A stretch of DNA of 64,000 bases from Candidatus Kaiserbacteria bacterium (GTDB taxonomy: Bacteria > Patescibacteriota > Minisyncoccia > Phycocordibacterales > UBA2100), in assembly GCA_023267655.1 (NCBI GenBank), contig JAHFMV010000003.1, positions 16,522 through 80,521 on the forward strand. The letters run 5' to 3'. Below, one piece after another: positions 1,003 to 64,000 of the stretch (position 1 is its first letter; every line of letters begins with the position of its first letter). A program made the position numbers and the translations under genes. The notes beneath the pieces are model-generated. The model did not search any database. It saw nothing but the letters and a program-made list of their open reading frames with translations, and was not told where the DNA came from.

Positions 1003-1035
1003 CATCTCACTCAAACCCAAACAGCGGGGCGCGAT

Positions 1036-1154
1036 AGATGTCTTTGCTTCGAGAGAACATCGCGCAGCAGATACTAAAGCGTGATGTCATACAGCAGTAG
1101 ATGTGACGTTAAAGCGTCCGCTCAGTTCGTGTTCGGTCCGAAGCAAAGACATCT
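1036..1154. repeat. copy 1 of a ~110-nt conserved 3'-proximal element (core GAGAACATCGCGCAGCAGATA...GTGATGT.ATACAG.AGTAGATGTGACGT...CAGTTCGTGTTCGG) closed by a 16-bp perfect inverted repeat (agatgtctttgcttcg / cgaagcaaagacatct)
   Basis: Near-identical core also at 5741-5863 and, reverse-complemented, at 12815-12925. Lies between the stop of the 1174-2694 gene and the terminator. Confidence 0.7.
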
Positions 1155-1173
1155 GTCGCGCCAACGTCAACCT

Positions 1174-2694: not shown

Positions 2695-2731
2695 ATGGAT
2701 TTCCTTGAAGCTTGACGCTCGTAGCTCGAAG

Positions 2732-3382
2732 CTACTTTAGATTCCTCAGCGCGGCTGTTGAGCGCAGGGTGAATTGGTTCGGCAACCGATTCGGATTGAT
2801 GTTAACGACGATCGTCGCTTGGACGAACCGCACTTCCGCGATTTTCGAGAGATCATTCATGAGCGTGCCATTCTGATCATAATACTGGAACATCAAGACA
2901 TTCTGTTCCGTGTTGCGCACATTGTCAGAAACGGTTGAGATCGTCTCCGGATTGGTATAAACCGGCGGATCGCTTGACGGATCAATGACACCGCGCATCA
3001 GAGAATTTCCTTGGAGAAAGAACCGCACTTGCTCGAGAAACGCATCGTCGTCAATGTCCGCATAAAATGAAAAGCTCGAGGTCGCCATCGAAATGATCGG
3101 CCACGCGCCATTCGAGGAATACGCGGCCTCGCGAATGGTCTTGATCATGCTCTCCATGCCGTGTTGCCCCGACGTGATCGCCGCGCCTTGCTCGACGGTG
3201 TACGTATTGGTGCGATAAAACGCTTGTACGGTTTGCGTGATCGCGAGCATGATCATCGTCGTGATCGCGACCCACACCATCGTTTCGAGCAAACTGATGC
3301 CACGGGAAGCGCGGCAGCCACTAGCGACTAGCCAATAGCCACTAGGGGAATGCTTGGATGCTTTTTTGATTTTGGATTTCAT
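2732..3382 (-). CDS. type IV pilin-like protein with prepilin-type leader (RG|ISLLETMVWVAITTMIMLAI)
   Basis: Class III signal-peptide motif G-ISLLE followed by a hydrophobic helix. The unusually long 28-aa leader is partly encoded by the TAGCCACTAG repeat. Confidence 0.6.
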   Translation of the reverse strand: MKSKIKKASKHSPSGYWLVASGCRASRGISLLETMVWVAITTMIMLAITQTVQAFYRTNTYTVEQGAAITSGQHGMESMIKTIREAAYSSNGAWPIISMATSSFSFYADIDDDAFLEQVRFFLQGNSLMRGVIDPSSDPPVYTNPETISTVSDNVRNTEQNVLMFQYYDQNGTLMNDLSKIAEVRFVQATIVVNINPNRLPNQFTLRSTAALRNLK

Positions 3383-3407
3383 ACTAGTGGCTAGTCGCTA
3401 GTGGCTA
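3317..3407. repeat. inverted pair of family-A repeats (agccactagcgactagccaatagccactagg 3317-3346; ctagtggctagtcgctagtggcta 3384-3407) bracketing the pilin start codon at 3380-3382
   Basis: Read directly from the sequence; same motif family recurs at 11480, 22043, 33670/33774, 40515/40553, 55017/55085. Confidence 0.7.
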
Positions 3408-5650: not shown

Positions 5651-5740
5651 GACTGTCCTCCATCGATTGCCTATTTCCAATGTCCACACTAACCCTACCC
5701 GAACGGTGCACAAAACTCAACACAACCACTAAGGAGCGAT

Positions 5741-5863
5741 GGCGTGAAAAATGCTTCGAGAGAACATCGCGCAGCAGATAGTAATACGTGATGTAATACA
5801 GTAGTAGATGTGACGTAAAAGCCACTGATCAGTTCGTGTTCGGGTTGAAGCATTTTTCACGCC
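5741..5863. repeat. copy 2 of the ~110-nt conserved element, closed by 17-bp perfect inverted repeat ggcgtgaaaaatgcttc / gaagcatttttcacgcc
   Basis: Core near-identical to 1052-1135; lies directly 3' of the pilC stop (5877). Confidence 0.7.
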
Positions 5864-5876
5864 ACCGCGACACGCT

Positions 5877-7133
5877 CTAGATATTGTCCGAGAGTTGGTA
5901 GATCGGGCTGATCATCGCGACTGCAAAGAAGCCGACGGCTGCACCGATCGCAAGCATAAGGAATGGCTCAATGATCGTCGACATGTCTTTCGTCTTCCGA
6001 TCCACTTCGTCTTCGTAAAAGACTGCAAGCTTTTTCATCATCTCGGTCAACTGCCCTGTCTCTTCGCCGACCGCAATCATCTCGCCCACAAATGCCGGGT
6101 ATAAATGCTCCGCGCGCACAAAAGCGCTCGAGAGCGGCTCACCTTTTGAAATATTTTCCTTCGCCTGCCCGATGACTTTCTTGAAATAATGATTCTGCAC
6201 AACGTCTTGCACGATCTCGAGCGAGGTCACCACATCCACGCCGCTCGAGAGAAGCGACGCGAGTGTCCGCGCCGTGCGCGCCGCATTCACCTCTTTCACG
6301 ATCGGCCCAATGATCGGAATGTGCAAAAAGACGAAATCCTTTGCGCGCCCGCCCGCTTCAGTGCGAAGCGCGGTATAGATGCCCCCGACGCCGATTATGA
6401 GAATTGAGAACGCAAGAATCGTGTACTCGACGAGGAAATTCGATACCGCGATGATTGCGCGGGTCGAAGCCGGCAGTTGCGCCCCCATTTCCTTAAACGT
6501 CGAGGCAAGCGTCGGAACAACATTGATCATCATAAAGGTACCGATGCCGAGAATCGCACAGACGATGATGATCGGATAGAGCATCGCACCACGAATTTTC
6601 TTCTTCAAGACATACATCCGCTCCATCTGGTCGGAGGTGACGACGAGTGCTTGCGGCATCTCACCGCCTTCCTCGCCCGCGCGCACCATCGCGACAAACA
6701 GTTTGGAGAAAACATGCGGGAATTTTGCCGCAGCAGAATGCAGTGTCTCACCGCGGCGCACCGCGCCCGATAATTCCGCAACCACGCTGCCGAGCCGCGG
6801 GTTTTTCGTCTGGCGCTCTATGACCGCAAGTGCTCGCGCAAGCGAAAGTCCCGCAGAGAGCATCGCGCCCAAGTTGCGCGAGAAGAGAATCTTCTCGTAT
6901 TCCGGCACCGTCGTTATTTTTGAATTCCAATACTGGAGGCTGAAGACGCCGTGCCTCTTTTCTTCGTCAACCGCGAGGATGCGGCCGCCTTCATGCCGCA
7001 CTATTTCGTACAACTCAAACCGATCGCGCGCCTGCGCGGTCCCTTTATATACTTCCCCGTCGCTTTTTTCCGCCGTGTATGAAAATCTCGCCACAGAATC
7101 AGTATACCGTATTCCGTATACAGTATTCCGCAA
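5877..7133 (-). CDS. pilC: type IV pilus assembly platform protein PilC (GspF family)
   Basis: Two GspF-type repeats and three TM segments; N-terminus ARFSYTAEKSDGEVYKGTAQARD typical of PilC. The first ~11 codons (TTG start at 7133) overlap an inverted-repeat arm, so the true start may be the GTG near 7094. Confidence 0.8.
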   Translation of the reverse strand: MRNTVYGIRYTDSVARFSYTAEKSDGEVYKGTAQARDRFELYEIVRHEGGRILAVDEEKRHGVFSLQYWNSKITTVPEYEKILFSRNLGAMLSAGLSLARALAVIERQTKNPRLGSVVAELSGAVRRGETLHSAAAKFPHVFSKLFVAMVRAGEEGGEMPQALVVTSDQMERMYVLKKKIRGAMLYPIIIVCAILGIGTFMMINVVPTLASTFKEMGAQLPASTRAIIAVSNFLVEYTILAFSILIIGVGGIYTALRTEAGGRAKDFVFLHIPIIGPIVKEVNAARTARTLASLLSSGVDVVTSLEIVQDVVQNHYFKKVIGQAKENISKGEPLSSAFVRAEHLYPAFVGEMIAVGEETGQLTEMMKKLAVFYEDEVDRKTKDMSTIIEPFLMLAIGAAVGFFAVAMISPIYQLSDNI

Positions 7134-7543
7134 AATGCACTATGTACGAATTCGATTTGGCGCCGTGCGGATTAATCCCGTCAACATTTGCGACACGGTT
7201 TCGGCTTTCTTTTCAAGTGCAGTAAAAGAATCGCGGGAAATATATTCCAAATCGCGTGCGATGAGTAACTGGCTCCTCAACTCTGAAAGTGAAGCGAGCG
7301 AAGTCGTATAAAAATTGATCTTGTCATTTTTCGTCTGCCGCACGAATCCCTCTGCAATATTTGAAGTAACAGAAACTGCGGCGCGGCGGATCTGACTGGT
7401 TAATCCGAAAAGTTCATCTTTTGGAAAAGTCTTGCTGGCTGTATATATCTCAAGAACAAGCGAGTGACCTTCTTGCCAAACACGTAAGTCCGTAAAACGC
7501 TGGATCATGGTGCGGTATACGGAATACTGTATACGGTATACGC
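7100..7543 (-). other. cassette: four-helix-bundle gene bracketed by ~31-bp inverted repeats (cagtataccgtattccgtatacagtattccg 7100-7130; gcggtatacggaatactgtatacggtatacgc 7512-7543) in the pilC-pilB intergenic position
   Basis: Arms are reverse complements over about 20 of 22 core positions. The right arm abuts the pilB stop (7544); the left arm overlaps the annotated pilC start. Confidence 0.65.
7140..7508 (-). CDS. four-helix-bundle protein of the 23S rRNA intervening-sequence protein family
   Basis: MIQRFTDLRVWQEGHSLVLEIY...AVSVTSNIAEGF matches the family's conserved N-terminal pattern (compare paralog at 54115). ORF-track start (GTG 7547) is encoded by the repeat arm, so ATG at 7506-7508 is preferred. 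Confidence 0.7.
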   Translation of the reverse strand: MIQRFTDLRVWQEGHSLVLEIYTASKTFPKDELFGLTSQIRRAAVSVTSNIAEGFVRQTKNDKINFYTTSLASLSELRSQLLIARDLEYISRDSFTALEKKAETVSQMLTGLIRTAPNRIRT

Positions 7544-9286
7544 TCACTCCGTAATCACACGCAACACCTCTTCAATAGTAGTAACTCCTTGCGAGGCTTT
7601 AAAAATCCCGTCTTCGATCATCGTGAGCATTCCCTCGCTGCGTGCTTGTTTTTCAATTTCATCCGCGGTCGCATTTTTCATCACATGCTCCTTAATGGTT
7701 GCAGTAACCGGGAGGACTTCATAGATACCGCGACGACCCGCGTACCCTTCCGGACACTCTGCCGTCGGCCCTGGTTTATAAAACGGCACGGTTTTCCAGG
7801 TCGCATTTGCGGCGACGATCTTCTCGTCTTTCAGTGCCTTGAGGACGACGCCGGCATCCAACGTGCTCTCAAGCTGCGTCTGTTCGTCGCGCGAGAGTTC
7901 GTACTTTTCGTGGCTTGGGCAGAGCATGCGCACGAGGCGCTGTCCTATGACAACGCGCAGAGTCGAGACGAGGAGGAACGGCTCGATGCCCATATCGAGG
8001 AGACGCGGGATGGCTCCTGCCGCAGAATTCGTGTGCAAAGTAGAAAGCACAAGGTGGCCGGTGAGCGCCGCATTGATCGCGAGTGATGCGGTTTCCTTAT
8101 CACGAATTTCCCCCACCATAATGATGTCGGGATCTTGGCGCACGAGCGAACGCAACCCGTTGGCAAACGTAAATCCAATATCCGGGCGCACCTGCGTCTG
8201 GTTCACCCGCTTCATTTGATACTCAATCGGATCTTCGACCGTGGAAATATTCACATCCGGCGTATTCAAAAGATCGAGAATCGTATAGAGCGTGGTGGAT
8301 TTGCCGGCGCCGGTCGGACCCGTCGTTAAGATGAGGCCGGTCGTTTGTTTCATCGCGCCATGCATTTGCTCCAAACCTGATCCGTGGAATCCGAGCGCTT
8401 CGAGCGAAAAGCCCGCGACATTATCACGCAAGAGGCGCATCACGATCTTTTCGCCGTAGTACGTCGGCAAAATAGAAACACGAAACGAAATTTTCTCACC
8501 GCCCGCTTCGACGCCAAAGCGTCCGTCCTGCGGCAATCTTTTTTCATCGAGCCGCATGTTGCCGAGGACTTTAATGCGCGCAGTGATTGCGGGCGCAGCG
8601 TGTTTCGGCAATTCCATCGCATCATGCAAGATGCCGTCGATGCGGTAACGGATGAGGAGCGATTCTTCGAGAGGCTCGATATGGATATCAGATGCATTTT
8701 GCGCGTTCGCGTGGCGCAAGAGCGTATCAACGATGCGCACAGCACTCACTCCCTCCGCCATCTGTCGCAAGTCTTCTTGCTTTGCGTCCGCACTTCCTGT
8801 TTTCGCAAGCGCATCGGTCTCGCGCTTGATGACATCGCCGAGATTGTCTTTGAGACCACGCTGGTACTGCTTGAGTGCGAGTTTCACCGACGCAGCGTCA
8901 GTGAGACGCGGCAAGATTTTCAAATGCGTTTTCTTCTTAATGAAATCGATCGCGGCGAGATCGTCAGTATCGAGCATCGCCACCTCGAGCTGCTCGTCTT
9001 TGTGGCTGTAGGCAATGATCGAATTGTGCCTTGCGACCGGTTCGGGAATGAGGGAGAGCGTTTCAAATGGAATCTGCTGCCCTGCGAGCGAGACAAACGG
9101 GATGCCGAGGATGTATGCGTAGGTGCGACGCAGTTCGTCCTCGCCAATTTTATTCTCCGCGATGAGAATATCCCCAATCGGTTTCCCGCGCTCTTTCGCC
9201 TCACGCTCGGCGGCCTCAAAATCTTTGTTCGAGATGAGCCCCGCGTCGGCGAGAAACGATTTTAAATGGGTATCAGAAATGTACAT
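7544..9286 (-). CDS. pilB: type IV pilus assembly ATPase PilB (GspE family)
   Basis: N-terminal GspII-type domain, Walker A GPTGAGKSTTLY, Walker B and His-box regions; 580 aa. Confidence 0.9.
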   Translation of the reverse strand: MYISDTHLKSFLADAGLISNKDFEAAEREAKERGKPIGDILIAENKIGEDELRRTYAYILGIPFVSLAGQQIPFETLSLIPEPVARHNSIIAYSHKDEQLEVAMLDTDDLAAIDFIKKKTHLKILPRLTDAASVKLALKQYQRGLKDNLGDVIKRETDALAKTGSADAKQEDLRQMAEGVSAVRIVDTLLRHANAQNASDIHIEPLEESLLIRYRIDGILHDAMELPKHAAPAITARIKVLGNMRLDEKRLPQDGRFGVEAGGEKISFRVSILPTYYGEKIVMRLLRDNVAGFSLEALGFHGSGLEQMHGAMKQTTGLILTTGPTGAGKSTTLYTILDLLNTPDVNISTVEDPIEYQMKRVNQTQVRPDIGFTFANGLRSLVRQDPDIIMVGEIRDKETASLAINAALTGHLVLSTLHTNSAAGAIPRLLDMGIEPFLLVSTLRVVIGQRLVRMLCPSHEKYELSRDEQTQLESTLDAGVVLKALKDEKIVAANATWKTVPFYKPGPTAECPEGYAGRRGIYEVLPVTATIKEHVMKNATADEIEKQARSEGMLTMIEDGIFKASQGVTTIEEVLRVITE

Positions 9287-9294
9287 AGGGATGA

Positions 9295-9362
9295 GGTTCT
9301 AGGTTCTAGGTTCTAGGTTCTAGGGAATCCGAAGTCCTCTGCAACCTTGCACCTTAAACCTG
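9295..9362. repeat. tandem heptamer (GGTTCTA x ~4.5) plus a family-B-like segment, 9 nt upstream of the pilB start codon
   Basis: gaggttctaggttctaggttctaggttctaggg then ctctgcaaccttgcaccttaaacctgacacctaa. On the pilB coding strand this reads CCTAGAACCT x4 immediately before the ATG. Confidence 0.65.
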
Positions 9363-9456
9363 ACACCTAATTTGTCATGCGCAGATTGATTATAGCAAGA
9401 TTTGGATGTAAGGTTGCGGCAGTCGCCACAGGGTCGCGACAAACAGGGAGATTCAC

Positions 9457-11479: not shown

Positions 11480-11507
11480 CTATTGGCTATACCCTAGTGG
11501 CTAATTA
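11480..11507. repeat. family-A repeat unit (ctattggctataccctagtggctaatt) 9 nt upstream of the nusA ATG
   Basis: Shares the ATTGGCTA / CTAGTGGCTAAT modules with the other family-A copies. Confidence 0.55.
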
Positions 11508-12769: not shown

Positions 12770-12973
12770 TTCAAAACCGACGCCGCGGAAAAGTGTCCGC
12801 TCGCGGCGCTCGGCGGTGTTCCTCCCACCCGAACACGAACTGATCAACGGATCGAATATCACATCTACTACTGTACGTCATCACGTATTGTTATTTGCTG
12901 CGCGATGTTCTCTGGGAGGAATACCGCCTATCGCCGTCTCGCTCCCTCTTCCGTCGGCGTTTGAGGTTTTGAA
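12770..12973. repeat. copy 3 of the ~110-nt conserved element (core 12815-12925, reverse-complement orientation on the plus strand) with extended imperfect outer inverted repeat
   Basis: Reverse complement of 12828-12912 aligns with cores at 1052-1135 and 5759-5845. Lies 7 nt after the nusA stop and before a terminator-like hairpin. Confidence 0.65.
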
Positions 12974-15125: not shown

Positions 15126-15157
15126 ACCTAGAACCTAGTCCCTAGAACCTAACACCT
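15126..15157 (+). repeat. family-B leader motif (cctagaacctagtccctagaacctaacacct) ending 6 nt before the ATG at 15164
   Basis: Same CCTAGAACCTAACACCT module as at 54486, 55850 and, on the minus strand, 9295-9325. Confidence 0.6.
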
Positions 15158-15163
15158 ATCTTT

Positions 15164-15550
15164 ATGGATCCACTCAACACAAGTCCCATTGCATCCGGCA
15201 GCCAAATGCCCGTACCGCCGATGTCGAATCGAGGCGGCCAGGAAGTGCCGCAGCCCGAACATCCGAAAAAGTCGGTCGGCCCTGTCGCCGGCGCCGTTAT
15301 TGTCATTCTTCTTCTGGTCGCCGGCGGTCTCTACTTCTGGGGCGCACAGCTGAACAATCAACAGCAACCGTCTCCGTATATTCCGTCGAATGATACGCCG
15401 CAGCCTGCCGTTGATCCGACGAGCGACTCCGGCGCGGGCTTGCCGCCGCAGAGTTCTTCGGATGACGTGAGCTCAATCCAGGCGGATGCCAGCGCAATGA
15501 ATACAGATCAATTGAACGCGCAGAACGGTACGGAGTTAAACGGCATTTAA
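15164..15550 (+). CDS. hypothetical membrane-anchored Pro/Gln/Ser-rich protein
   Basis: Single TM segment VGPVAGAVIVILLLVAGGLYFW; low-complexity ectodomain. Confidence 0.4.
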   Translation: MDPLNTSPIASGSQMPVPPMSNRGGQEVPQPEHPKKSVGPVAGAVIVILLLVAGGLYFWGAQLNNQQQPSPYIPSNDTPQPAVDPTSDSGAGLPPQSSSDDVSSIQADASAMNTDQLNAQNGTELNGI

Positions 15551-21643: not shown

Positions 21644-21765
21644 GAGGGCAAATCATACATCTGTTTTGCCACTCTGACAATGATTGACATCCCGAAAATA
21701 CGGCTCAAAATGGTGCTTGATTGGTCGACAATCATTTTTACTTACAATTTTGTATAAACGCATAT

Positions 21766-22041
21766 ATGGCAAATAAAATGGATTTGGTAGACAAGGTGCA
21801 CTCGACGATCGGCTCGACGAAGGCCGATGCGGAGCGCGCGGTTGAGGCGATTATCATGATGATCACGGATTGCCTCAAGCGAGGCGAAGAGGTCTCGATC
21901 GCCGGATTGGGCATTTTCGAAGCAAAGACGCGCGCAGGCCGCACCGGTCGCAACCCGCGCACGGGAGCTACGATCCAGATCAAAGCTATGAAAGTTCCAA
22001 AATTTCGCGCATCGAAGACGCTCAAGGATGCGGTGAAGTAG
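21766..22041 (+). CDS. hup: DNA-binding protein HU
   Basis: MANKMDLVDKV...GLGIFEAKTRAGRTGRNPRTGATIQIKAMKVPKFRASKTLKDAV is the canonical HU/IHF fold signature; ATG at 21766 preferred. Confidence 0.8.
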   Translation: MANKMDLVDKVHSTIGSTKADAERAVEAIIMMITDCLKRGEEVSIAGLGIFEAKTRAGRTGRNPRTGATIQIKAMKVPKFRASKTLKDAVK

Positions 22042-22042
22042 T

Positions 22043-22067
22043 AGCGACTAGCCAATAGCCACTAGGA
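22043..22067. repeat. family-A repeat unit (tagcgactagccaatagccactagg) directly after the hup stop
   Basis: Identical to 3322-3346. Confidence 0.6.
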
Positions 22068-26536: not shown

Positions 26537-26569
26537 ATTCCCAAGTAAGGCGACCAGCCGTATTGGCAG

Positions 26570-26675
26570 AAGGCAAAAAATGCTTCACGAGGGTCTTCGC
26601 AGCGGCGTCGGGCGCGAGACCGAGCGCTGGCGCAGCAGCGCCAGATAGCGACCCGAGGGAAGCATTTTTTGCCTT
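26570..26675 (+). other. long hairpin: 17-bp perfect inverted repeat aaggcaaaaaatgcttc / gaagcattttttgcctt enclosing a 72-nt GC-rich interior
   Basis: Shares the AAAAATGCTTC...GAAGCATTTTT closing stem and the GCGCAGCAG / CAGATAG words with the ~110-nt 3' element family; lies 34 nt after the cca stop. Confidence 0.5.
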
Positions 26676-26703
26676 TTGCCACAAACATACAAAGCAAAAG
26701 CCG

Positions 26704-33404: not shown

Positions 33405-33671
33405 ATGCTGACGAAGCGAAAGAAGCAAAACGAAATCGGCAAGGTTAAGCGCCACGACACTGATACCGGCTCGCCGGAGGTGCAAGTCGCGCTCTTGACC
33501 CGCCGTATCGAAGAGCTCTCGGCACATTTGGATAAGAATCGTAAGGACAAAAGCTCCCGTCGCGGACTTTTGGGGCTCGTGGCTGATCGCCGCAAGCATT
33601 TGAAATACCTTGAGTCTACCAACAAGCGCTCGTATTCAGCGCTCACGAAGAAGCTCGGATTAAAAAAATAG
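33405..33671 (+). CDS. rpsO: 30S ribosomal protein S15
   Basis: Full-length S15 pattern (KRHDTDTGSPEVQVALLTRRIEELSAHL...RRGLLGLVADRRKHLKYL). Confidence 0.9.
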   Translation: MLTKRKKQNEIGKVKRHDTDTGSPEVQVALLTRRIEELSAHLDKNRKDKSSRRGLLGLVADRRKHLKYLESTNKRSYSALTKKLGLKK

Positions 33672-33800
33672 CGACTAGTGATTAGCCACTAGGAAATGCG
33701 GGCTCTCCAAATCGTCAGCTATAATCTGCATAGAGCAGATTTTTAGAAGCATTATCAGTTTTTATATTGAATTCACTAGTGGCTAATCGCTAGTGGCTAA
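33670..33800. repeat. inverted pair of family-A repeats (agcgactagtgattagccactagg 33670-33693; cactagtggctaatcgctagtggctaa 33774-33800) with an 80-bp AT-rich spacer, ending 6 nt before the ATG at 33807
   Basis: Read directly from sequence. Confidence 0.7.
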
Positions 33801-40514: not shown

Positions 40515-40575
40515 TTAGCCACTAGCCACTAGGGGAAAGGCGGACTGAATTTCCTATTGGCTAGTGGCTAGTGGC
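40515..40575. repeat. inverted pair of family-A repeats (ttagccactagccactagggg / cctattggctagtggctagtggc) with 17-bp spacer
   Basis: Read directly; ends 24 nt before the ATG at 40600. Confidence 0.7.
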
Positions 40576-40599
40576 TTTTTGTTCATGTATTATAGGGCG

Positions 40600-53462: not shown

Positions 53463-54077
53463 ATGTCCGACGATAAGAAAACTTTGGATGTTGAACTAAA
53501 GGAACGCTTTGCTCAACTTCCTAAAGTTGTACAAAATGCAATTACCTCAGCAGAGGTTGAAAAATTACTGCGGAGCTTGGCTGATACTCAAAAATTACAT
53601 TTGGATCAGTGGCAATCCTTGGAAAACGAAGTCATGATGGCGTTACTGGGCGTACAACCCATTGGAAATTTACAAGAAAACATCGGTAAGGAAGTTGGGG
53701 TGAGCGCTGATGTAGCTAAAACGCTCGCAGAAAATATCAACAAAATCGTCTTCGAACCCATTCGCCAAGAACTCGAACGCCAGCTAGAGCATCCGGAGGC
53801 GCAAGCGAAGCAGGTGAGTACCATTGAGGCGGCGCGGGCAGAGACGCTTGCGGGGGCGCAGCCGGCAGCCGGGAGCCAGCAGCCGGGAGCTAATTCAGAA
53901 TCCGCTCCGAGCTCCGGGCTACAGGCTCCAAGCTCGGTTCTACCGGCAACACCACCATCGCTCGTGCCTGACATAAAAGTCACGCGCCCCTCTGAATCAA
54001 CCGCCTATAAACCGGGCGAACCATCAACACAGCGCGCCGCGGTGCACGACGACCCGTATCGGGAGCCGCCACTCTAG
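53463..54077 (+). CDS. hypothetical protein (204 aa)
   Basis: ORF only; its stop overlaps the left arm of the IVS cassette. Confidence 0.4.
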   Translation: MSDDKKTLDVELKERFAQLPKVVQNAITSAEVEKLLRSLADTQKLHLDQWQSLENEVMMALLGVQPIGNLQENIGKEVGVSADVAKTLAENINKIVFEPIRQELERQLEHPEAQAKQVSTIEAARAETLAGAQPAAGSQQPGANSESAPSSGLQAPSSVLPATPPSLVPDIKVTRPSESTAYKPGEPSTQRAAVHDDPYREPPL

Positions 54078-54510
54078 GTGACAGGTTCCAGGTGTCAGGT
54101 TTTAGGGAAAATACATGGATAAAATTCGATCGTACAAAGATCTTATTGTTTGGCAGAAAGCGATTGGCGTTGTCACTGACGTGTATCTAACGACCAAGAA
54201 ATTTCCTTCAGAAGAGCGATTTGGACTTTCTTCACAAATGCAACGCGCGGCTGTTTCGATAGCTGCAAACATTGCAGAAGGACACGGGCGTGGAACACGA
54301 AGTGACTATGCTCACTTTTTGGATATGTCAAATGGCTCGGTATCCGAATTGGAGACGCTCTTCATCATTGTCAGAAAACTATCATATTGTTCGGACGAAC
54401 AATGTAGTAAAATAGAAGGACAGTTACATGAAGTTGGGAAGATGCTTGGATCTCTCCGAAGTAAGTTACGTGTTCGCCCCTAGCACCTAGAACCTAACAC
54501 CTGGAACCTA
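54074..54510 (+). other. cassette: four-helix-bundle gene bracketed by family-B inverted repeats (aggttccaggtgtcaggttttagg 54084-54107 versus cctagaacctaacacctggaacct 54485-54508)
   Basis: Arms are reverse complements at ~20 of 22 positions. The insert 54108-54484 is almost exactly the 369-bp gene. Confidence 0.7.
54115..54483 (+). CDS. four-helix-bundle protein of the 23S rRNA intervening-sequence protein family (second copy)
   Basis: MDKIRSYKDLIVWQKAIGVVTDVY...AAVSIAANIAEGHGR parallels the 7140-7508 paralog. Confidence 0.7.
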   Translation: MDKIRSYKDLIVWQKAIGVVTDVYLTTKKFPSEERFGLSSQMQRAAVSIAANIAEGHGRGTRSDYAHFLDMSNGSVSELETLFIIVRKLSYCSDEQCSKIEGQLHEVGKMLGSLRSKLRVRP

Positions 54511-54515
54511 ATTCT

Positions 54516-55022
54516 ATGCAATTCCAAGTTCCCCAGTTCATTGAGGTCGAGGACAAGATCTTTGGGCCTCTCACCTTCAAACAATTCGTCTACATCGCAG
54601 GAGGCGCCGGCTGCGGCTATCTGCTGTGGCGCGTTCTTCCTATTTACCTCGCCGCCCCCCTTATCGCCGGCGTCGTCGGCCTCGGCGCGGGGTTGGCCTT
54701 CTTCAAATACAACGGCCAGCCCTTTATCCTCGCCCTCGAGCATGGTTTTTTCTTCTTTGTACGCAGCAAGCTCTACCTCTGGAGCAATGAAGTGCGCGAT
54801 ACTACGAAAAAGAAAGATCTCGCGGCACAAATAGCCGCTCCCGCAGCACAGATTTACGTCCCGAAGCTCTCCGACGGCAAGCTGCACGAGCTCGCGTGGA
54901 GTCTCGACATCAAAGAGCGCATCGCAGGAGGAACTGCCGATGACGACGAGCGCGCAGACAGCTCACCACTGAAGGGCATCATCGCGCCCGTCCGTACCGC
55001 GCGTGAGGCGCTCATTAACTAG
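54516..55022 (+). CDS. PrgI-family (VirB3-like) T4SS membrane protein
   Basis: MQFQVPQFIEVEDKIFGPLTFKQFVYIAGGAG followed by two TM helices matches the PrgI family N-terminal pattern. Confidence 0.55.
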   Translation: MQFQVPQFIEVEDKIFGPLTFKQFVYIAGGAGCGYLLWRVLPIYLAAPLIAGVVGLGAGLAFFKYNGQPFILALEHGFFFFVRSKLYLWSNEVRDTTKKKDLAAQIAAPAAQIYVPKLSDGKLHELAWSLDIKERIAGGTADDDERADSSPLKGIIAPVRTAREALIN

Positions 55023-55115
55023 CCAATAGCCACTAGGTATTTGCCACTAGAAAATGCATATGAATCCAAAAATTTCCTTAATGTATTGGCCAGTGGCTAG
55101 TCGCTAGTGGCTAAT
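55017..55115. repeat. inverted pair of family-A repeats (taactagccaatagccactagg ... attggccagtggctagtcgctagtggctaat) ending 10 nt before the ATG at 55126
   Basis: Read directly; the spacer contains CATATGAAT..TTCC, also seen in the 55820-55850 spacer. Confidence 0.7.
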
Positions 55116-55125
55116 AACTATTTTT

Positions 55126-55800
55126 ATGCCTGAAACCGTCACCTCAACAAAGCCGACCAGCAAATCGACACAGCAATTTGTGCCGGTTTCCGAAGTGCGC
55201 GACGGTATCTTGATCCTCAAGGACAAGAGCCTGCGTGCGATCCTTCTTGCGTCGTCGATCAATTTTGCGCTTAAATCTGAAGACGAACAGACGGCGTTTA
55301 TCGTGCAATTCCAAAACTTTCTCAACTCGCTCGACTTTTCGTGCGAAATTTTCGTGCAATCGCGCATGCTCGACATCCGCCCGTACATTGCATCCCTCGA
55401 GGTCGCCTACAAAGGGCAGCTCGACGACCTTATGCGCATCCAAATTCGCGAATACATCGAATTCATCAAGAGCTTTACCGAGGCCGCGAACATCATGACG
55501 AAAAATTTCTTCGTCGTCGTCCCGTATTCGTCGACGGCGATTTCGCTTTCCGGCAGTGGCGGCATCGCGGGGAAATTACCGTTTGGACGCAAAAAAAATA
55601 CGGCAGAGGATGCGAACCGTTCGTTTGAAGAGCAGGTCTCACAGCTTGAGCAACGCATTTCGATCGTGCAGCAGGGTCTCGTGCGCTGCGGCGTACGCAC
55701 CGTGCAGCTTGGAACCGAAGAGGCGATCGAACTGATGTACAAACTCTTCAACCCGGGCGAAGAAGGGAAGCCGATGACGCTGGATGCAGGTGCCAGGTGA
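55126..55800 (+). CDS. VirB4/TrsE-like N-terminal domain encoded as a separate ORF
   Basis: FVPVSEVRDGILILKDKSLRAILLASSINFALKSEDEQ resembles the N-terminus of Gram-positive-type VirB4 ATPases; stop codon lies inside a family-B repeat arm. Confidence 0.45.
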   Translation: MPETVTSTKPTSKSTQQFVPVSEVRDGILILKDKSLRAILLASSINFALKSEDEQTAFIVQFQNFLNSLDFSCEIFVQSRMLDIRPYIASLEVAYKGQLDDLMRIQIREYIEFIKSFTEAANIMTKNFFVVVPYSSTAISLSGSGGIAGKLPFGRKKNTAEDANRSFEEQVSQLEQRISIVQQGLVRCGVRTVQLGTEEAIELMYKLFNPGEEGKPMTLDAGAR

Positions 55801-55879
55801 CAGGTTCCAGGTTACAGTAAAATATAAATACAATACATCATATGAATTTCCTAGAACCTAACACCTGGAACCTGTAACC
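55794..55879 (+). repeat. family-B inverted pair (ggtgacaggttccaggt 55796-55812 / acctggaacctgtaacc 55861-55877) with 48-nt AT-rich loop, separating the two VirB4 ORFs
   Basis: 17-bp stem with one mismatch; forward arm CCTAGAACCTAACACCTGGAACCT ends 5 nt before the ATG at 55882. Confidence 0.65.
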
Positions 55880-55881
55880 TT

Positions 55882-58800
55882 ATGGCTTTATTGGATCTTT
55901 TCAAAAAATCTTCGGTCCCCGCGGCGACGGTGCTGCCGGTCCTTCCGGAAGAAATCTACCGCACTGGCGTCCTCGGCCTCCAGGACGTGATCGCACCGCA
56001 CGCACTTCGCGTCTCGCCGCGCGAGCTCGACCTTGGCGAAAAAATCGCGCGCACGTTTTTTGTGATCTCATACCCGCGCTTCCTCACGACGGGGTGGTTT
56101 GCGCCGATCATCAACATGGACAAGGTGCTCGACATCGCGATTTTCATCCATCCGATGGACACGAACGAAATGCTGCGCAAATTTCAGAAAAAAGTCGCCG
56201 AGGTGCAAAGTCAGATCGCGACGCGTGAGGAAAAGGGGATGGTGCGCGACCCAATGCTCGATACCGCATATCAAGACCTCGAAAAATTGCGCGACTCTCT
56301 GCAACAAGCGCAGGAACGCATTTTTGATGTCGGACTCTACCTCACGATCTACGGCTCGAGCCGCGAAGAAATAGATAAGGTAGAGAGCGAAATCCGCTCG
56401 ATCCTCGAGAGCCGCCTCGTGTACATCCGCCCGGCACTTTTCCAGCAAGAACAAGGCTTCCGCTCGACGCTCCCGATTGCGACCGATGAATTAAACGTCC
56501 ACACGAAACTCAATTCGGCGCCGCTCTCGTCCATCTTCCCGTTTATTTCATTCGACCTAACGTCCGACAGGGGAATCCTTTACGGCATCAACCGCCACAA
56601 TTCGTCACTTATTTTGTTCGATCGATTTTCTTTGGAGAATTATAATTCGGTCACTTTCGCAAAGTCGGGAGCAGGTAAGAGCGTCTGCTACGAAGAGCCC
56701 GTTTTGACACGTGAAAGCGGAATCATACGTTATGCGCCAATTGGTCAAGTGGTGGAAAAAACTATTAAAAAACATGGTTGCAGAAAGATTGACGACGAGT
56801 TAGAGGGAGTTATCGATCCGGGTATTGAAGTGTTCAGTTTTGATCAAGACATGCGGGGGCGTTGGAGTAAAGTATCGGTCGCTGCACGAAAAGATGCCCC
56901 AGATACATACTACGCATTCAGGACAAAAAGCGGCCGCGAGGTAACAACTACTGCTGATCACAACATGCTAGTCTTACGACGCGGGAAAGTTATTGCCGCG
57001 AAAAGTGAAAATGTGAAAGAGGGAGAGTATATTCCTCTGCCGCGCAGCGTGCATCCATCCCTGCACTCCCCCCGTCATATAGGATCTAGCCTCTTGCCGG
57101 TAACAGAACATCTCAGTTCTGTCCTTGGTTGGATCGCAGCAGAAGGGACTATCGCGAAACGCTCGATCATTATCAGCAACACCGATCAGGAATCACTGTC
57201 ACACATTGAAAATGAATGTCGAGCCCTCGGTTTTTCCTGCGGCAGCAACAAGCGGTGGGTTGCCATTTATGGCAAACGTGTCTGTGAACAGCTAAAAGCC
57301 CTTGGCGCAACGGGAAAATCCGGTACTAAAACAGTCCCCGGATTTCTTTTTAACACGTCGCGCGATGTGGTCGCCTCATACCTGCAAGCGTATTTCGAAG
57401 GTGATGGCGGTGTAGAAAATCACGAAATTACTGCGCTTTCAAAGTCGAAAGAGCTGATATCAGGGCTTTCGTATTTGTTGTACTACTTCGGCATTATTGC
57501 GCGGATACAGAAGCGGCAGAAGAAATACGCGAAGACGGGACGCAAAAGGACATTCTGGATGCTTAGCATTTCAGGTCAGGATAATATCCGGAAATTCCAA
57601 GAGCACATCGGCTTTATTTCGACGCGAAAAAAGGAGGCCCTCGCGAAAATCGCCGTTAAAAACGGAAATACCAACTGCGATATCGTGCCGGGACTACAAC
57701 CGCTTGCGAAAGAGCTTGAACTCCTTTTCGATACGCAGCTGTCGGACATATCCGACTTCTCCGCGCTCAAGCAGGGTCACGGCCTCTCGCCGACTCGGCT
57801 CGGAACACTTGTCGATACAATGGAGGCGCGCGTGCGGCGGTTCAAGGACTTGTATCCTTTCATGCAGAAATTGCAGGATCTGCCGACTGTTGAAGCGATT
57901 ATCAAAAAAGCTGATGGAGATCGCGATTTGAATCACAGGCTTATTGAAACAATGAGCAGCTCATGGTTTACGGTCAAGCAAGGAATGCCACCACGAACGA
58001 AAAATGCGCTGAAAATCTTTGAAACTGCAGGTGTCGAAGCTCCAAAAACCATCGACGAATTAAAGGGGATGGTGGAGAGCGGCGTCTCGAATTTGCGCGT
58101 CCCGAGGAGCGATTTTGATGAGTACCTTACGAGATCCCTGCATGGTACTCGCGACAATTCGTCGTACGAACTCCTACGCACCGCATCACAATTTATTTTT
58201 TGGGAGTACCGCCGCACGCTACACAACTTGCATCGCGTCGAAGAAATCATCGCTATGTTTAAGACGCTCGTGAACGCCGACCTTTTCTGGGATCCGATTG
58301 TTTCTATCGTGAAAAAGGCCAACAAAAAAGACAAGTATGTATACGACCTCACCGTTGACGACGAAGTGTTCCTCGCGGGACACGGCGGCATGTTCGTGCA
58401 CAATTCATATACGACGAAGCTTGAGATTCTGCGCTCTTTAATGTTCGATACGGAAGTCATCGTCATCGACCCGGAACGCGAATACGAATATCTCGCGACG
58501 ACCGTCGGCGGCCGCTACTTCAACATTTCACTCTCCTCCGAACACCATATCAATCCGTTTGATCTCCCCATCCCACGTGAAGACGAGAACCCCGGCGACA
58601 TTTTGCGCAACAACATCATTACGCTCGTTGGCCTCTTCCGCATCATGCTCGGCGGACTTACGCCAGAAGAGGACGCCGTCATCGACAAGGCGATTACGGA
58701 AACCTACGCACTCAAAGACATTACGCAAGACGCGAATTTCGCCTCTATCGAGCCGCCGCTCCTCTCCGACTTTGAACTGGTCTTAAGCGGCATGGAAGGA

Positions 58801-59685
58801 TCAGAATCACTCGTCGCGCGCCTTTCGAAATATACGAAAGGCACGTGGTCGGGATTCATGAACCGCCCGACCAACGTCGATATGAACAAAAAACTTACGG
58901 TCTTTTCCGTGCGCGATATGGAAGATGATTTGAAGCCGGTCGCGATGTACATCATTACACACCACATTTGGAACACGGTAAGGAAAGAACTGCGAAAGCG
59001 CCTGCTTGTGATCGACGAGGCGTGGTGGATGATGAAATCGCAAGACACGGCGAGCTTCCTTTTCGGTATTGCAAAGCGCGGCCGTAAATACTATCTCGGT
59101 CTCTCGACGATTACGCAGGACGTCAACGACTTTCTCACCTCACCGTACGGCGCGGCGATGATCACGAACTCATCAATTCAGCTCCTTCTGCGCCAATCAC
59201 CGACGTCGGTTGATCTTGTACAAAGCACGTTCAAATTGACTGATGAAGAAAAGTATTTGCTCCTCGAATCCGACGTGGGGGAGGGGATTTTCTTCGCCGG
59301 ACTGAAGCATGTTGCCATCAAAGTCATCGCCTCGTACACCGAAGACCAAATCATTACCTCCGATCCGTCGCAAATCCTCGCTATCAAGAAAGCAAAAATG
59401 GATCTCGCTTCTGCAAACGATACAAGCGCACCTGCCGCACCACGACAGAGCGCCGCTGATATCTTAAAAGCCGCGGCCATGAAGGAATCGAGCGGTATCG
59501 CGCAGCAGGCCGCTACCGAGGCACTACCAACGCAAACACCAGCGGCAAGCACAGAATCCGACAATCCGCTTCCACCGCCCCCAACACCGACTCCTACTCC
59601 ACCGCCCTCGCCTGTCGCGCCTGCACCTGCGGCACCCACCGCGCCCTCGCTTCCACCCGAAGCAAATCCTGATCGTCCGGTATGA
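55882..59685 (+). CDS. VirB4/TraE-like T4SS ATPase (extein ~694 aa) interrupted by an in-frame 573-aa intein
   Basis: Walker A FAKSGAGKS immediately before the intein; C-extein SYTTKLEILRSL...LLVIDEAWWMMKS (DEAW Walker-B-like) and conserved VirB4 C-terminal region; Pro-rich tail. Confidence 0.8.
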   Translation: MALLDLFKKSSVPAATVLPVLPEEIYRTGVLGLQDVIAPHALRVSPRELDLGEKIARTFFVISYPRFLTTGWFAPIINMDKVLDIAIFIHPMDTNEMLRKFQKKVAEVQSQIATREEKGMVRDPMLDTAYQDLEKLRDSLQQAQERIFDVGLYLTIYGSSREEIDKVESEIRSILESRLVYIRPALFQQEQGFRSTLPIATDELNVHTKLNSAPLSSIFPFISFDLTSDRGILYGINRHNSSLILFDRFSLENYNSVTFAKSGAGKSVCYEEPVLTRESGIIRYAPIGQVVEKTIKKHGCRKIDDELEGVIDPGIEVFSFDQDMRGRWSKVSVAARKDAPDTYYAFRTKSGREVTTTADHNMLVLRRGKVIAAKSENVKEGEYIPLPRSVHPSLHSPRHIGSSLLPVTEHLSSVLGWIAAEGTIAKRSIIISNTDQESLSHIENECRALGFSCGSNKRWVAIYGKRVCEQLKALGATGKSGTKTVPGFLFNTSRDVVASYLQAYFEGDGGVENHEITALSKSKELISGLSYLLYYFGIIARIQKRQKKYAKTGRKRTFWMLSISGQDNIRKFQEHIGFISTRKKEALAKIAVKNGNTNCDIVPGLQPLAKELELLFDTQLSDISDFSALKQGHGLSPTRLGTLVDTMEARVRRFKDLYPFMQKLQDLPTVEAIIKKADGDRDLNHRLIETMSSSWFTVKQGMPPRTKNALKIFETAGVEAPKTIDELKGMVESGVSNLRVPRSDFDEYLTRSLHGTRDNSSYELLRTASQFIFWEYRRTLHNLHRVEEIIAMFKTLVNADLFWDPIVSIVKKANKKDKYVYDLTVDDEVFLAGHGGMFVHNSYTTKLEILRSLMFDTEVIVIDPEREYEYLATTVGGRYFNISLSSEHHINPFDLPIPREDENPGDILRNNIITLVGLFRIMLGGLTPEEDAVIDKAITETYALKDITQDANFASIEPPLLSDFELVLSGMEGSESLVARLSKYTKGTWSGFMNRPTNVDMNKKLTVFSVRDMEDDLKPVAMYIITHHIWNTVRKELRKRLLVIDEAWWMMKSQDTASFLFGIAKRGRKYYLGLSTITQDVNDFLTSPYGAAMITNSSIQLLLRQSPTSVDLVQSTFKLTDEEKYLLLESDVGEGIFFAGLKHVAIKVIASYTEDQIITSDPSQILAIKKAKMDLASANDTSAPAAPRQSAADILKAAAMKESSGIAQQAATEALPTQTPAASTESDNPLPPPPTPTPTPPPSPVAPAPAAPTAPSLPPEANPDRPV
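56686..58404 (+). mobile_element. intein with LAGLIDADG homing-endonuclease domain inserted in the VirB4 P-loop
   Basis: Block A CYEEPVLTRESGIIRYAPIGQVV (Cys1 at 56686), block B TTTADHNMLV, DOD motifs LGWIAAEGTI and LQAYFEGDGGV, block F/G KYVYDLTVDDEVFLAGHGGMFVHN followed by Ser+1 (58405). Confidence 0.75.
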
Positions 59686-63295: not shown

Positions 63296-63413
63296 CAGAT
63301 AATTTTCAATTCTCAATTTTCAGTGAATTTTCAATGTTCCAATGTTTGAAAATTGATTCATTCGAACTTGAATGAAAATTTGAAATTGATAATTGATAAT
63401 TGATAATTGAAAA
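63296..63413. repeat. AT-rich repetitive spacer (TTTTCAAT words, GATAATTGA x3 tandem, palindrome cattcgaacttgaatg) between yidC and jag
   Basis: Read directly from sequence. Confidence 0.6.
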
Positions 63414-64000
63414 TTAGTCTGATTTCTTATCCCCAAATCGTCGTCCCATGAAAAGTTCCTGCCCAATCATAAAGAGGTTTGAGGTCGTCCAGTAGAGAGG
63501 TACGGCGGCAGAAACCGTAAATGCAATGCCCGCGACGATAAGCGGGAGGATGTAGCGCGCCTGGAGGTCGAAACTCTTGGCCATGTCATTTGAAAACGAT
63601 TGCTCTACGGGCGACGTGGCCATTTGGTTGCGAGGTCCCATGGAGAGACGCGCGTAGGTCAGTTGCGTGAGACCCGCGAGTGCAGCAAGAAGAATGCTTT
63701 TCTTTCCCATGTCGATAAGTCCGAGAAACTCCATGTTAAACATTTTCGGGACCGGAACGAACGAATACAAAAGGTCGGGATTGACGTGGGGAAGACCGCC
63801 GCGGCCGAAGACCCAATAGAGGCCGAGGAGGATTGGGAATTGGATGAGAATGAGAAAAAATGAAGAAAACGGCCGAATGCCGCGTTCTTTGTAGAGGGCA
63901 AAAATTGCTTTTGCCTGTTCGTCTTGTTTATCTTTGTATTTTGTTTTAATCGCTTCAATGTTCGGCGCAATCGCCTTCATCGCCATTTGCGTGCGGATCG
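63414..64000 (-). CDS. yidC: membrane protein insertase YidC, partial (N-terminus beyond window end)
   Basis: Conserved YidC/Oxa1 core ...IKTKYKDKQDEQAKAIFALYKERGIRPFSSFFLILIQFPILLGLY...; the reading frame stays open to position 64000. Confidence 0.8.
   Translation of the reverse strand, partial: IRTQMAMKAIAPNIEAIKTKYKDKQDEQAKAIFALYKERGIRPFSSFFLILIQFPILLGLYWVFGRGGLPHVNPDLLYSFVPVPKMFNMEFLGLIDMGKKSILLAALAGLTQLTYARLSMGPRNQMATSPVEQSFSNDMAKSFDLQARYILPLIVAGIAFTVSAAVPLYWTTSNLFMIGQELFMGRRFGDKKSD

Follow-up and report, generated by a model that had tools for sequence, protein, structure and literature searches.

Background

Why should one short motif recur a few nucleotides upstream of several start codons in the same bacterial genome? 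The question is raised by a 64,000-nucleotide stretch of DNA from a Candidatus Kaiserbacteria bacterium (contig JAHFMV010000003.1; "the window" below means this whole stretch), in which a reading made from the letters alone, here called the sequence-only reading, had described the motif CCTAGAACCT as a leader that, if it functions in translation, would do so by a non-canonical mechanism. By combining an analysis of the window with comparisons to related genomes and a survey of homologous loci, we find that what was taken for a free-standing leader forms one of the two arms of small, mobile hairpin elements. We put at about 60% the probability of the interpretation that we favor, namely that these elements represent a selfish cassette of the intervening sequence (IVS) type coding for a four-helix-bundle protein, accompanied by MITE-like derivatives (MITE, miniature inverted-repeat transposable element), which fills operon junctions from stop codon to start codon.

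The flagged motif is the terminal repeat of a gene-carrying element

Allowing at most one mismatch, the window contains 15 matches to CCTAGAACCT against 1.57 expected, and none of 100 shuffles reached 15; the motif is thus non-random, as had been proposed. The matches fall at 9294-9324 (minus strand, as four overlapping perfect copies), 15127-15150, 54479-54509 and 55850-55873, with reverse-complement arms at 54083-54106 and 55802-55811. Tandem Repeats Finder returned a period of 7 at every one of these sites, and the array upstream of pilB (9294-9324), which had been called a tandem heptamer array, indeed comprises 4.4 copies of AGGTTCT with a 100% match. All four sites named by the sequence-only reading adjoin start codons at coordinates that agree with ours, the end of the arm being separated from the ATG by 2-8 nt. 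Three of the four downstream open reading frames (ORFs) have a family identity, namely those coding for the PilB ATPase (start 9286), PrgI (54516) and the intein-containing C-terminal part of VirB4 (55882), and the fourth, ORF 15164-15550, has no family match.

The complementary arms that had been reported upstream were likewise recovered: positions 54083-54106 and 54486-54509 show 92% complementarity over 24 nt, and the region 55785-55881 is predicted to fold into a stem with an RNA fold z-score of -5.5. The arm preceding the ATG is C-rich and G-poor, in agreement with the statement that it is not Shine-Dalgarno-like. It does not resemble the purine-rich complement of the 16S rRNA 3' end that defines a Shine-Dalgarno-type leader; the 16S 3' end of this organism lies outside the window.

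What had escaped the sequence-only reading is that the arm pair 54074/54510 encloses a gene. Hence, the flagged stretch 54486-54510 belongs to a gene-carrying element (54074-54510), of which it forms the 3' terminal repeat (Table 1). A second such element lies on the opposite strand, and in both the arms are 360-380 nt apart and enclose a gene of the PF05635/TIGR02436 family; in the second element the segments 7108-7144 and 7506-7542 are complementary at 84% over 37 nt. Against NF033474, the equivalog model for the Avd protein of diversity-generating retroelements (DGRs), the two window proteins score 43.1 and 31 bits, below the cut-off of 80. Neither a reverse transcriptase nor a template/variable repeat pair is found near their genes, the neighbors being type IV secretion and pilus genes. 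Among solved structures of relatives, 2GSC (Xanthomonas XCC0516) and 2RLD both contain five chains per entry, and the paper on the Xcc0516 structure names 'five four-helix bundles' in its title.

Of the window elements, only these two full-length copies have PF05635/TIGR02436 content. The miniatures end in the terminal repeats of the full-length copy, with the interior in either orientation. They have in this the make-up of MITEs, which carry the terminal inverted repeats of a longer gene-carrying element and have lost its interior. The 24-nt arm CCTAGAACCTAACACCTGGAACCT is identical in the full-length copy (54486) and in the miniature arm at 55850. Moreover, the loop of that miniature (55787-55880) reads on its opposite strand AGGAAATTCATATG, which matches the ribosome-site/start region of the four-helix-bundle gene of a related locus, L210 (AGGGAAATTCATG; L numbers are our locus designations). 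The miniature upstream of pilB has a 3' arm of (CCTAGAA)x4 CCT (9324-9294) ending 7 nt before the ATG at 9286. The solo arm at 15126-15157 has no partner arm and no predicted fold (z = -0.07).

No rRNA was detected in the window with Rfam, and the elements lie between protein-coding genes; in the Rfam 15 scan only four tRNAs reach the gathering score. The best hit below that score is a full-length match of the minus strand of 55763-55898 to RF02625, the Wolbachia small RNA WsnRNA46 (29.9 bits versus a gathering score of 65.3). The consensus stem of this family also displays a CAG-anchored 7-nt spacing, and WsnRNA46 may be an element of the same kind as the window miniatures.

Heptamer arrays pervade the window

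A periodicity scan recovered 14 period-7 arrays in the window, versus 0-1 for each other period from 4 to 12, and nearly all of these arrays form inverted pairs. They belong to at least six heptamer families: AGGTnnn (family B, which includes the flagged motif), AGCCACT/CTAGTGG (family A), GTATACC, AGCGTCG, AATTTTC and AGCCGGC. Neither the spread of period-7 arrays over the whole window nor this diversity of families had been noticed in the sequence-only reading. Family-B arms are built of tandem heptamers AGGTnnn/nnnACCT, and family A has 27 matches against 1 expected. Most arms carry five anchors, and the miniatures are predicted to fold into long interrupted stems (z -2.5 to -8.3). In several cases the upstream gene ends on the element itself, its stop codon being the TAG with which the 5' arm begins (54075-54077; 55020-55022) or a TGA further within that arm (55798-55800).

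Table 1. Heptamer-array elements and their genes in the window (strand is that of the element or gene; z, RNA fold z-score)
Position	Strand	Feature	Description
54074-54107	+	Family-B full-length element, 5' arm	C-TAG-GTGAC AGGTTCC AGGTGTC AGGTTTT AGGG; five AGG anchors, period 7; TAG is the stop of gene 53463-54077
54115-54483	+	Four-helix-bundle gene between the arms, 122 aa	PF05635 23S_rRNA_IVP, E 1e-37; TIGR02436, E 4e-35
54479-54510	+	Family-B full-length element, 3' arm (flagged site)	CCTAGCA CCTAGAA CCTAACA CCTGGAA CCT; holds the stop of the enclosed gene; ends 5 nt before the PrgI ATG (54516)
55787-55880	+	Family-B ORF-less miniature	VirB4-N/VirB4-C junction (ATG 55882); VirB4-N stop TGA in second unit of 5' arm; z -5.5
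9294-9368	-	Family-B ORF-less miniature	Upstream of pilB; 5' arm AGGTGTC AGGTTTA AGGTGCA AGGTTGC AG (9368-9339); z -2.5
15126-15157	+	Solo family-B 3'-type arm	Between stop 15118 and ATG 15164
7102-7545	-	Second full-length element	GTATACC/GTATTCC arms (7102-7130, 7511-7545); between pilB and T2SSF/pilC
7140-7547	-	Four-helix-bundle ORF of second element	PF05635, E 3e-38; likely start is the ATG near 7509
55017-55123	+	Family-A miniature	AGCCACT/CTAGTGG units; between PrgI (stop TAG 55020-55022 in arm) and VirB4-N (ATG 55126); z -4.9
3316-3407	-	Family-A miniature	Loop ATG (3382) is the sole in-frame start upstream of the prepilin cleavage glycine of pseudopilin 2732-3382; z -7.0
33669-33799	+	Family-A miniature	Ends 7 nt before ATG 33807 (NYN-domain gene); z -8.3
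40516-40577	+	Family-A miniature	Short loop; z -6.5
11480-11503	+	Solo family-A 3'-type arm	12 nt before nusA ATG 11516
22042-22065	+	Solo family-A 5'-type arm	Immediately after the stop of ORF 21721-22041
2637-2726	-	Miniature, AGCGTCG-type arms	Between pseudopilin gene and ORF 1174-2694; loop with AGGAAATCCATATG; z -3.6
63301-63415	-	Miniature, AATTTTC/TTGATAA arms	Fills the R3H-YidC spacer (168 nt here versus 37 nt in relatives); z -3.7
53856-53935	+	Candidate element, heptamer inverted repeat (AGCCGGC.../GCTCCGA...)	In frame within variable linker of ORF 53463-54077; z -1.4

Two further observations concern repeats of the window. The candidate at 53856-53935 has five AG anchors per arm and lies in a low-complexity linker of a conserved protein of the secretion operon; relatives have indels at this linker, and the peptide encoded by the 3' arm is common to locus L007. 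This repeat may be an element that has been domesticated and is now translated, or its low complexity may be due to chance. Separately, a third, non-heptameric repeat family occurs at 1028-1162 (+), 5736-5868 (+) and 12804-12936 (reverse orientation), and perhaps at 26564-26681, always in intergenic positions. Its copies have a conserved core of about 85 nt (CGAGAGAACATCGCGCAGCAGATA...GATCAGTTCGTGTTCGG) flanked by arms of 22-24 nt, which differ between copies and are 88-96% complementary within each. There is no Rfam match to this family even at E <= 1; from its pattern of variation it looks like either a structured RNA with compensatory changes or a MITE.

Elements come and go at identical operon junctions

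To place the elements in an evolutionary context we compared orthologous junctions. The taxon names carried by homologous proteins assign the organism to Patescibacteria / Candidatus Paceibacterota. Three syntenic loci at 70-80% nucleotide identity (L003, L007, L009) possess the same type IV secretion operon devoid of elements at three junctions. These measure 49 nt (before PrgI), 1 nt and 1 nt in the relatives versus 438, 103 and 81 nt in the window, with the PrgI/VirB4-N and VirB4-N/VirB4-C junctions of the relatives reading simply TAA-T-ATG. Closer relatives (L210, L211, L213, L014) have in common the four-helix-bundle element before PrgI, and their VirB4-N/VirB4-C junction varies widely: it is empty in L210, holds the AGGT miniature in the window, and is occupied by a second four-helix-bundle gene with ACAGTAA arms in L213 and by a four-helix-bundle gene with AAATCCG arms in L211. 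L014 has an ACGTAGT miniature there, of which a near-identical second copy sits at its PrgI/VirB4-N junction. A comparable series is seen at the junction following the pseudopilin gene: the miniature found there is of the AGCGTCG type in the window and of the AGGGACA type in L214, and L215 has a bare TAG-T-ATG. In the closest relatives (94-98% identity) the spacers are 74-104 nt long as judged from gene coordinates, indicating that elements are present there but differ in length.

The occurrence of different families at the same junctions implies that these were colonized independently, which is the behavior of mobile DNA and not of a conserved translation signal. On this comparative evidence, the elements are best read as repeated insertions.

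Two candidate interpretations of particular junctions were discarded. As the ORFs on either side of the 55787-55880 element are in the same frame, we considered that an element at 55787-55880 had split VirB4; this is ruled out as VirB4-N is a separate gene in every relative examined (7960 VirB4-N homologs were retrieved, and the 120 listed are all about 200-230 aa long). A supposed element at a PrgI/VirB4 junction in the saccharibacterial locus L061 was also rejected, given that tblastn finds neither PrgI nor VirB4 in that locus. The VirB4 C-terminal gene (55882-59685) itself harbors an intein with a LAGLIDADG endonuclease domain (56679-58402), another selfish element in the same operon; L003, L007 and L009 lack this intein and L213 has it.

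A conserved five-by-seven architecture across phyla

We then collected 80 loci from a species-representative genome collection, selected solely by two peptide patterns within the four-helix-bundle gene, and used as controls 276 windows shifted by 600-900 nt. The loci span Acidobacteriota, Bacteroidota, Planctomycetota, Firmicutes, Proteobacteria, Chloroflexota, several candidate phyla and one archaeon. The gene is bracketed by an inverted repeat at 62 of the 75 testable loci versus 1/276 controls, and heptamer periodicity is detected at 56 of the 75 (24/276 controls). The heptamer itself varies by locus (GTGACAA, CAGGTGT, TAGGCAA, CACTAAC, ATCAAGG, CTAACCT and others) around a consensus unit AGKNDYY, the 5' arm being G-rich (G > C) and the 3' arm C-rich at 66/71 loci. 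An AG dinucleotide stays in register at period 7 at 46/74 loci, as against none at periods 5, 6 and 9 and four loci at period 8, and the AG-anchored units point inward on both strands. The number of anchors per arm has a sharp mode of five in both arms (27/74 and 26/74 loci). The rule that emerges, in which a pentamer-forming gene is flanked on either side by five AG-anchored heptamers and has miniatures, extends across phyla and appears not to have been stated before.

The position of the elements relative to their neighbors is equally regular. The enclosed gene is co-oriented with both neighbors at 49 loci and opposed to both at 6. At 22 of 60 loci the stop codon of a co-directional upstream ORF lies at most 5 nt from the first base of the 5' array, and the ATG of a co-directional downstream ORF is mostly found 1-25 nt past the 3' array. 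The elements of the window conform to all of these regularities. All three reading frames are closed by the 5' arm in 38% of cases versus 8% after shuffling, and by the 3' arm in 23% versus 2%.

A complementary search with the exact motif CCTAGAACCTAACACCTnnnACCT yielded at least 120 occurrences in a metagenome collection, on contigs of 31-69% G+C. A four-helix-bundle gene was beside the motif in only 3 of the 80 loci fetched, and at 64 of 84 sites the outer edge of the motif coincided with a same-strand ORF start or an opposite-strand ORF end, versus 33% at random positions.

Individual loci depart from the common pattern. L051, L052 and L088, from other phyla, have one arm expanded to 10-13 heptamers and retain four or five in the other, indicating that arrays grow by unit addition on one side. 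The candidate-phyla loci L075 and L077 have the same architecture with a period of 8 and TAGGTAAT units. Many of the four-helix-bundle homologs are on contigs shorter than 2 kb, and contig L001 ends just past the gene; the elements evidently break metagenome assemblies.

A proposed selfish cassette tolerated between stop and start codons

The interpretation that we favor builds on what is shown here: how the elements are made up, which gene family they carry, that identical junctions display presence/absence polymorphism and turnover of families, and that an architecture of five units of seven nucleotides recurs across phyla. A full-length element consists of a 5' arm of about five AG-anchored heptamers, a gene of about 120 aa for a four-helix-bundle protein (PF05635/TIGR02436), which is a homolog of Avd, and, as its 3' arm, the inverted complement of the 5' arm. 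Internal deletion would then generate the ORF-less miniatures of 60-135 nt and the single arms, which keep the terminal repeats of the full-length form, in a relation like that of MITEs to parent transposons. Insertion would have been repeated and independent, into the tiny stop-T-ATG junctions of co-transcribed genes, such that the 5' arm begins at the stop codon of the preceding gene, which it often supplies, and only a few bases separate the end of the 3' arm from the following start. A selfish cassette would survive only where it is harmless, which in a compact operon would be exactly between a stop codon and the next start.

The element is probably transcribed together with the operon, as the 49:6 bias toward co-orientation suggests. 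By homology with the rRNA-borne relatives of Coxiella and Leptospira, the arms might pair into an interrupted stem of about 30 bp that is cut by RNase III, and excision of this kind would allow the insertion to be tolerated. The five-unit arms may serve as the binding platform of the element's own pentameric protein, which could act in trans on the miniatures for their maintenance or movement.

A broader version of this proposal can be entertained, which we regard as less likely than not. It holds that the TIGR02436 genes define one pan-bacterial class of mobile cassettes, in which each of the five heptamers would be read by one subunit of a pentamer wrapped by a single strand. The rings of HutP and TRAP, which read spaced triplets, offer a model for a pentamer reading heptamers. 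The short tandemly repeated repetitive (STRR) arrays and those of Xanthomonas, Beggiatoa and the candidate phyla would then be footprints or miniatures of the class, sometimes co-opted for stop codons, start codons or leader peptides.

Several points weigh against the selfish-cassette interpretation. Across 74 arm pairs, mismatches read on the sense strand comprise 63 G:U and 78 A:C, i.e. there is no preference for G:U, and the arms are only about 84% complementary. These figures thus fail to demonstrate selection for a stem at the RNA level, and what is conserved may be the periodic core instead of the pairing. RNase III cleavage has been demonstrated for the rRNA-borne relatives alone, and the stems considered here are predicted. 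The GTATACC, AAATCCG and AATTTTC families have no AG anchor and a few elements have a period of 8; the match between five units and a pentamer is, at present, numerology. No transposase, integrase or reverse transcriptase is recognizable in the elements, their sole encoded protein being the four-helix-bundle protein. A comparison of filled and empty junctions, for which the relatives are very divergent, yielded a possible TAACTA repeat (55017/55123) and defined no target-site duplication elsewhere. Finally, solo 3'-type arms persist before start codons without a partner (15126 and 11480 in the window; 3266-3304 in L003). These, together with the TAACTGA arrays of Beggiatoa (PMC4679880), could be arms retained for a function at the start codon.

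Alternative explanations

Because the mismatches show no G:U bias and RNA-stem selection is accordingly not demonstrated, a serious rival is a transposon acting purely at the level of DNA. Here each array would be a terminal inverted repeat in which a binding site is iterated, the factor for transposition would be the four-helix-bundle protein, by itself or together with an enzyme of the host, and RNA pairing and RNase III cleavage would be irrelevant side effects. Besides the absence of a G:U over A:C bias, it would account for a periodic core that is better conserved than complementarity at the variable positions, for AG-anchored units facing inward as at transposon ends, for miniatures in either internal orientation that keep the terminal repeats of the full-length copy, for repeated and independent insertion, and for the many homologs on very short contigs, as expected of repeated mobile DNA. 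We nevertheless hold it to be unlikely: the protein has no recognizable catalytic domain, no target duplication could be defined, the co-orientation bias suggests dependence on read-through transcription, and the relatives within rRNA are excised at the RNA level. Furthermore, by our own reasoning, a 7-bp spacing would be geometrically hard to accommodate for a duplex on a pentamer with subunits of about 120 aa.

The idea closest to the sequence-only reading is that the array is a translation signal, the pyrimidine-rich, G-poor tract before the ATG acting as a Shine-Dalgarno-independent element for initiation or coupling. It might do so as a standby site bound by a protein or by S1, or through a stem that joins stop and start and so favors re-initiation by terminating ribosomes. 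At least eight start codons of the window have an arm that ends 2-12 nt ahead of them, some of these arms have no partner, and arms close all three frames far more often than shuffled sequences do. In addition, most TAACTGA arrays of a Beggiatoa genome point toward a start codon without a ribosome-binding site (PMC4679880), and on the complementary strand TAACTGA reads AGTTATC, in agreement with the consensus unit.

One miniature even appears to supply a start codon. Between a family-A miniature and its prepilin cleavage glycine, the pseudopilin gene 2732-3382 has no in-frame start; the ATG in the loop of the miniature gives a 28-aa leader, MKSKIKKASKHSPSGYWLVASGCRASRG|ISLLE, in which the 3' arm is read through (PSGYWLVAS). 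L214 and the homologs P0242 and P0247 have this arrangement open as well; L215, in which the junction is empty, has TGA-T-ATG and an 8-aa leader, MRSKHTRG|MTLLE. The miniature thus seems to have replaced the start codon and now to provide both start and leader peptide, implying that elements can be co-opted for starts as they are for stops. A secondary link between arms and translation is possible.

As the primary explanation, though, a translation signal is improbable. The same genes work in relatives at 70-80% nucleotide identity with bare stop-T-ATG junctions, and other relatives have quite different heptamers at identical junctions. The array is the terminal repeat of a gene-carrying element, and its reverse complement forms the 5' arm, placed at the stop codon of the upstream gene. 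The motif marks gene ends no less often than gene starts: at the 84 metagenomic sites its outer edge lies at the end of an opposite-strand gene in 51 and at the start of a same-strand gene in 33. Nor is the want of a Shine-Dalgarno sequence beside the arms remarkable, since the window is poor in them throughout. Most of its genes have none and many display a -10-like TAnnnT box about 7 nt before the ATG (e.g. at the starts 5175 (-), 13810 (-), 15612, 25076, the 30665 region, 35782, 44158 and 46059), a pattern that suggests widespread leaderless mRNAs. The PrgI spacer of the relatives likewise reads TTGCAA-N17-TATACT-N7-ATG, and in the window it has been replaced by the element. We conclude that the arms adjoin start codons because the elements are inserted exactly between neighboring genes, rather than through a role in starting translation. 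Of the sequence-only reading, then, the observations endure, in that the motif is non-random, adjoins starts, pairs with upstream arms and groups with the 'family A' palindromes; a leader acting in translation is not supported.

The resemblance of AGGT/ACCT arms to a Shine-Dalgarno/anti-Shine-Dalgarno pair was dropped as a general explanation, as it is absent in the CTAGTGG, GTATACC, AGCGTCG and AATTTTC families. Lastly, neutral simple-sequence repeats or G-quadruplex tracts arising by polymerase slippage, unrelated to the enclosed gene, would explain copy numbers that vary in 7-nt steps (Coxiella and Cyanothece strains), one-sided expansions to 10 or more units (L051, L052, L088) and the formation of quadruplexes by G-rich units in vitro (PMC4692102), yet we consider them very improbable in view of the inverted pairing with matched five-unit counts on both sides, the bracketing of one gene family at 62/75 loci, the loops common to miniatures at different sites and the existence of families without G-runs (CTAGTGG, GTATACC, AATTTTC).

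Implications

The four-helix-bundle 'IVS protein' is among the commonest uncharacterized families of small genes in bacteria, and several earlier reports of heptamer arrays at the borders of genes left them unexplained. The locus studied here and the 80-locus survey join the two in a single anatomy: five heptamers, a gene or its deletion remnant, and five inverted heptamers. That such elements come and go at identical operon junctions leads to a concrete hypothesis for what the protein binds. The anatomy also provides an annotation rule, as these elements break assemblies, shift predicted starts, and extend or truncate neighboring ORFs. It further calls for caution, in that a motif found upstream of many starts may, in a compact genome, merely reflect the places at which selfish DNA can be tolerated.

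Comparison with known systems

Avd, the DGR accessory protein, is a pentamer. It is a homologous four-helix-bundle protein that binds nucleic acid and a partner enzyme; the window proteins differ from it in falling below the equivalog cut-off and in having no DGR reverse transcriptase nearby. MITEs, and the repetitive extragenic palindromes (REP) and bacterial interspersed mosaic elements (BIME) associated with REP-associated tyrosine transposases (RAYT), resemble the miniatures in being short ORF-less intergenic palindromes that share ends with a gene-carrying partner and often follow stop codons in operons. Unlike them, the partner here has no known transposase (neither DDE nor Y1/HUH), the ends are tandem heptamer arrays instead of a unique inverted repeat, and no target-site duplication could be defined at the window elements.

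Heptamer arrays have been described in other bacteria. Rehm et al. 2015 reported GGGAATC arrays in Xanthomonas, with 70-75 per genome occurring as convergent pairs, and GGGGAYT arrays in Nostoc; the G-rich strand lies up to 50 bp after stops and the C-rich strand up to 50 bp before ORFs, and the arrays were read as G-quadruplexes (PMC4692102). MacGregor 2015 described TAACTGA arrays in Beggiatoaceae, cyanobacteria and Bacteroidetes located directly before starts that have no ribosome-binding site (PMC4679880). Like the elements of the window, these arrays and the cyanobacterial STRR have a period of 7, are intergenic between co-directional genes, G-rich after the stop and C-rich before the start, form convergent pairs as inverted repeats, often precede genes without a ribosome-binding site, and change copy number in 7-nt steps. 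They differ in the heptamer sequences and in having been treated as G-quadruplex tracts or possible sites of a translational regulator. Neither paper draws a link to a four-helix-bundle gene, the terms 'S23', 'four helix' and 'intervening' being absent from both, and among the open-access papers searched we found none tying heptamer inverted repeats to this gene family. The published arrays may all derive from such cassettes. Within cas operons, too, genes of the four-helix-bundle family have been noted, in one case squeezed in between cmr3 and cmr2 (PMC3936711).

The closest counterparts are the ORF-bearing IVSs of 23S rRNA in Leptospira and Coxiella burnetii. In Coxiella the termini of the IVS form a stem of 28 bp, and its S23p ORF is preceded by tandem GACAGAT heptamers, two or three depending on the strain; RNase III cleaves where the first of these repeats begins, and the authors cite an older idea that the IVS ORF serves mobility (PMC4990558). 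None of the IVS papers examined describes a symmetric architecture of five units or a link to intergenic hairpins without an ORF. IVSs reside in helix 9, 25 or 45 of the 23S rRNA, whereas the window elements lie between protein-coding genes of operons, with many copies and several heptamer families per genome, and their excision by RNase III would be by analogy. The likenesses are extensive: a PF05635 protein, heptamers directly upstream of the ORF, a gene oriented with the host transcript, short ORF-less versions, and a sporadic distribution that suggests horizontal spread (PMC4990558). Both full-length window elements have complementary termini around the ORF that could form a stem of the kind seen in an IVS (roughly 25-30 bp), and period-7 arrays are present at every arm, in the manner of the tandem heptamers that adjoin the ORF start in Coxiella. 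The elements of the window are IVS-type four-helix-bundle cassettes, an already known kind, here in a variant with heptamer arrays set in the operon junctions of a candidate-phyla bacterium.

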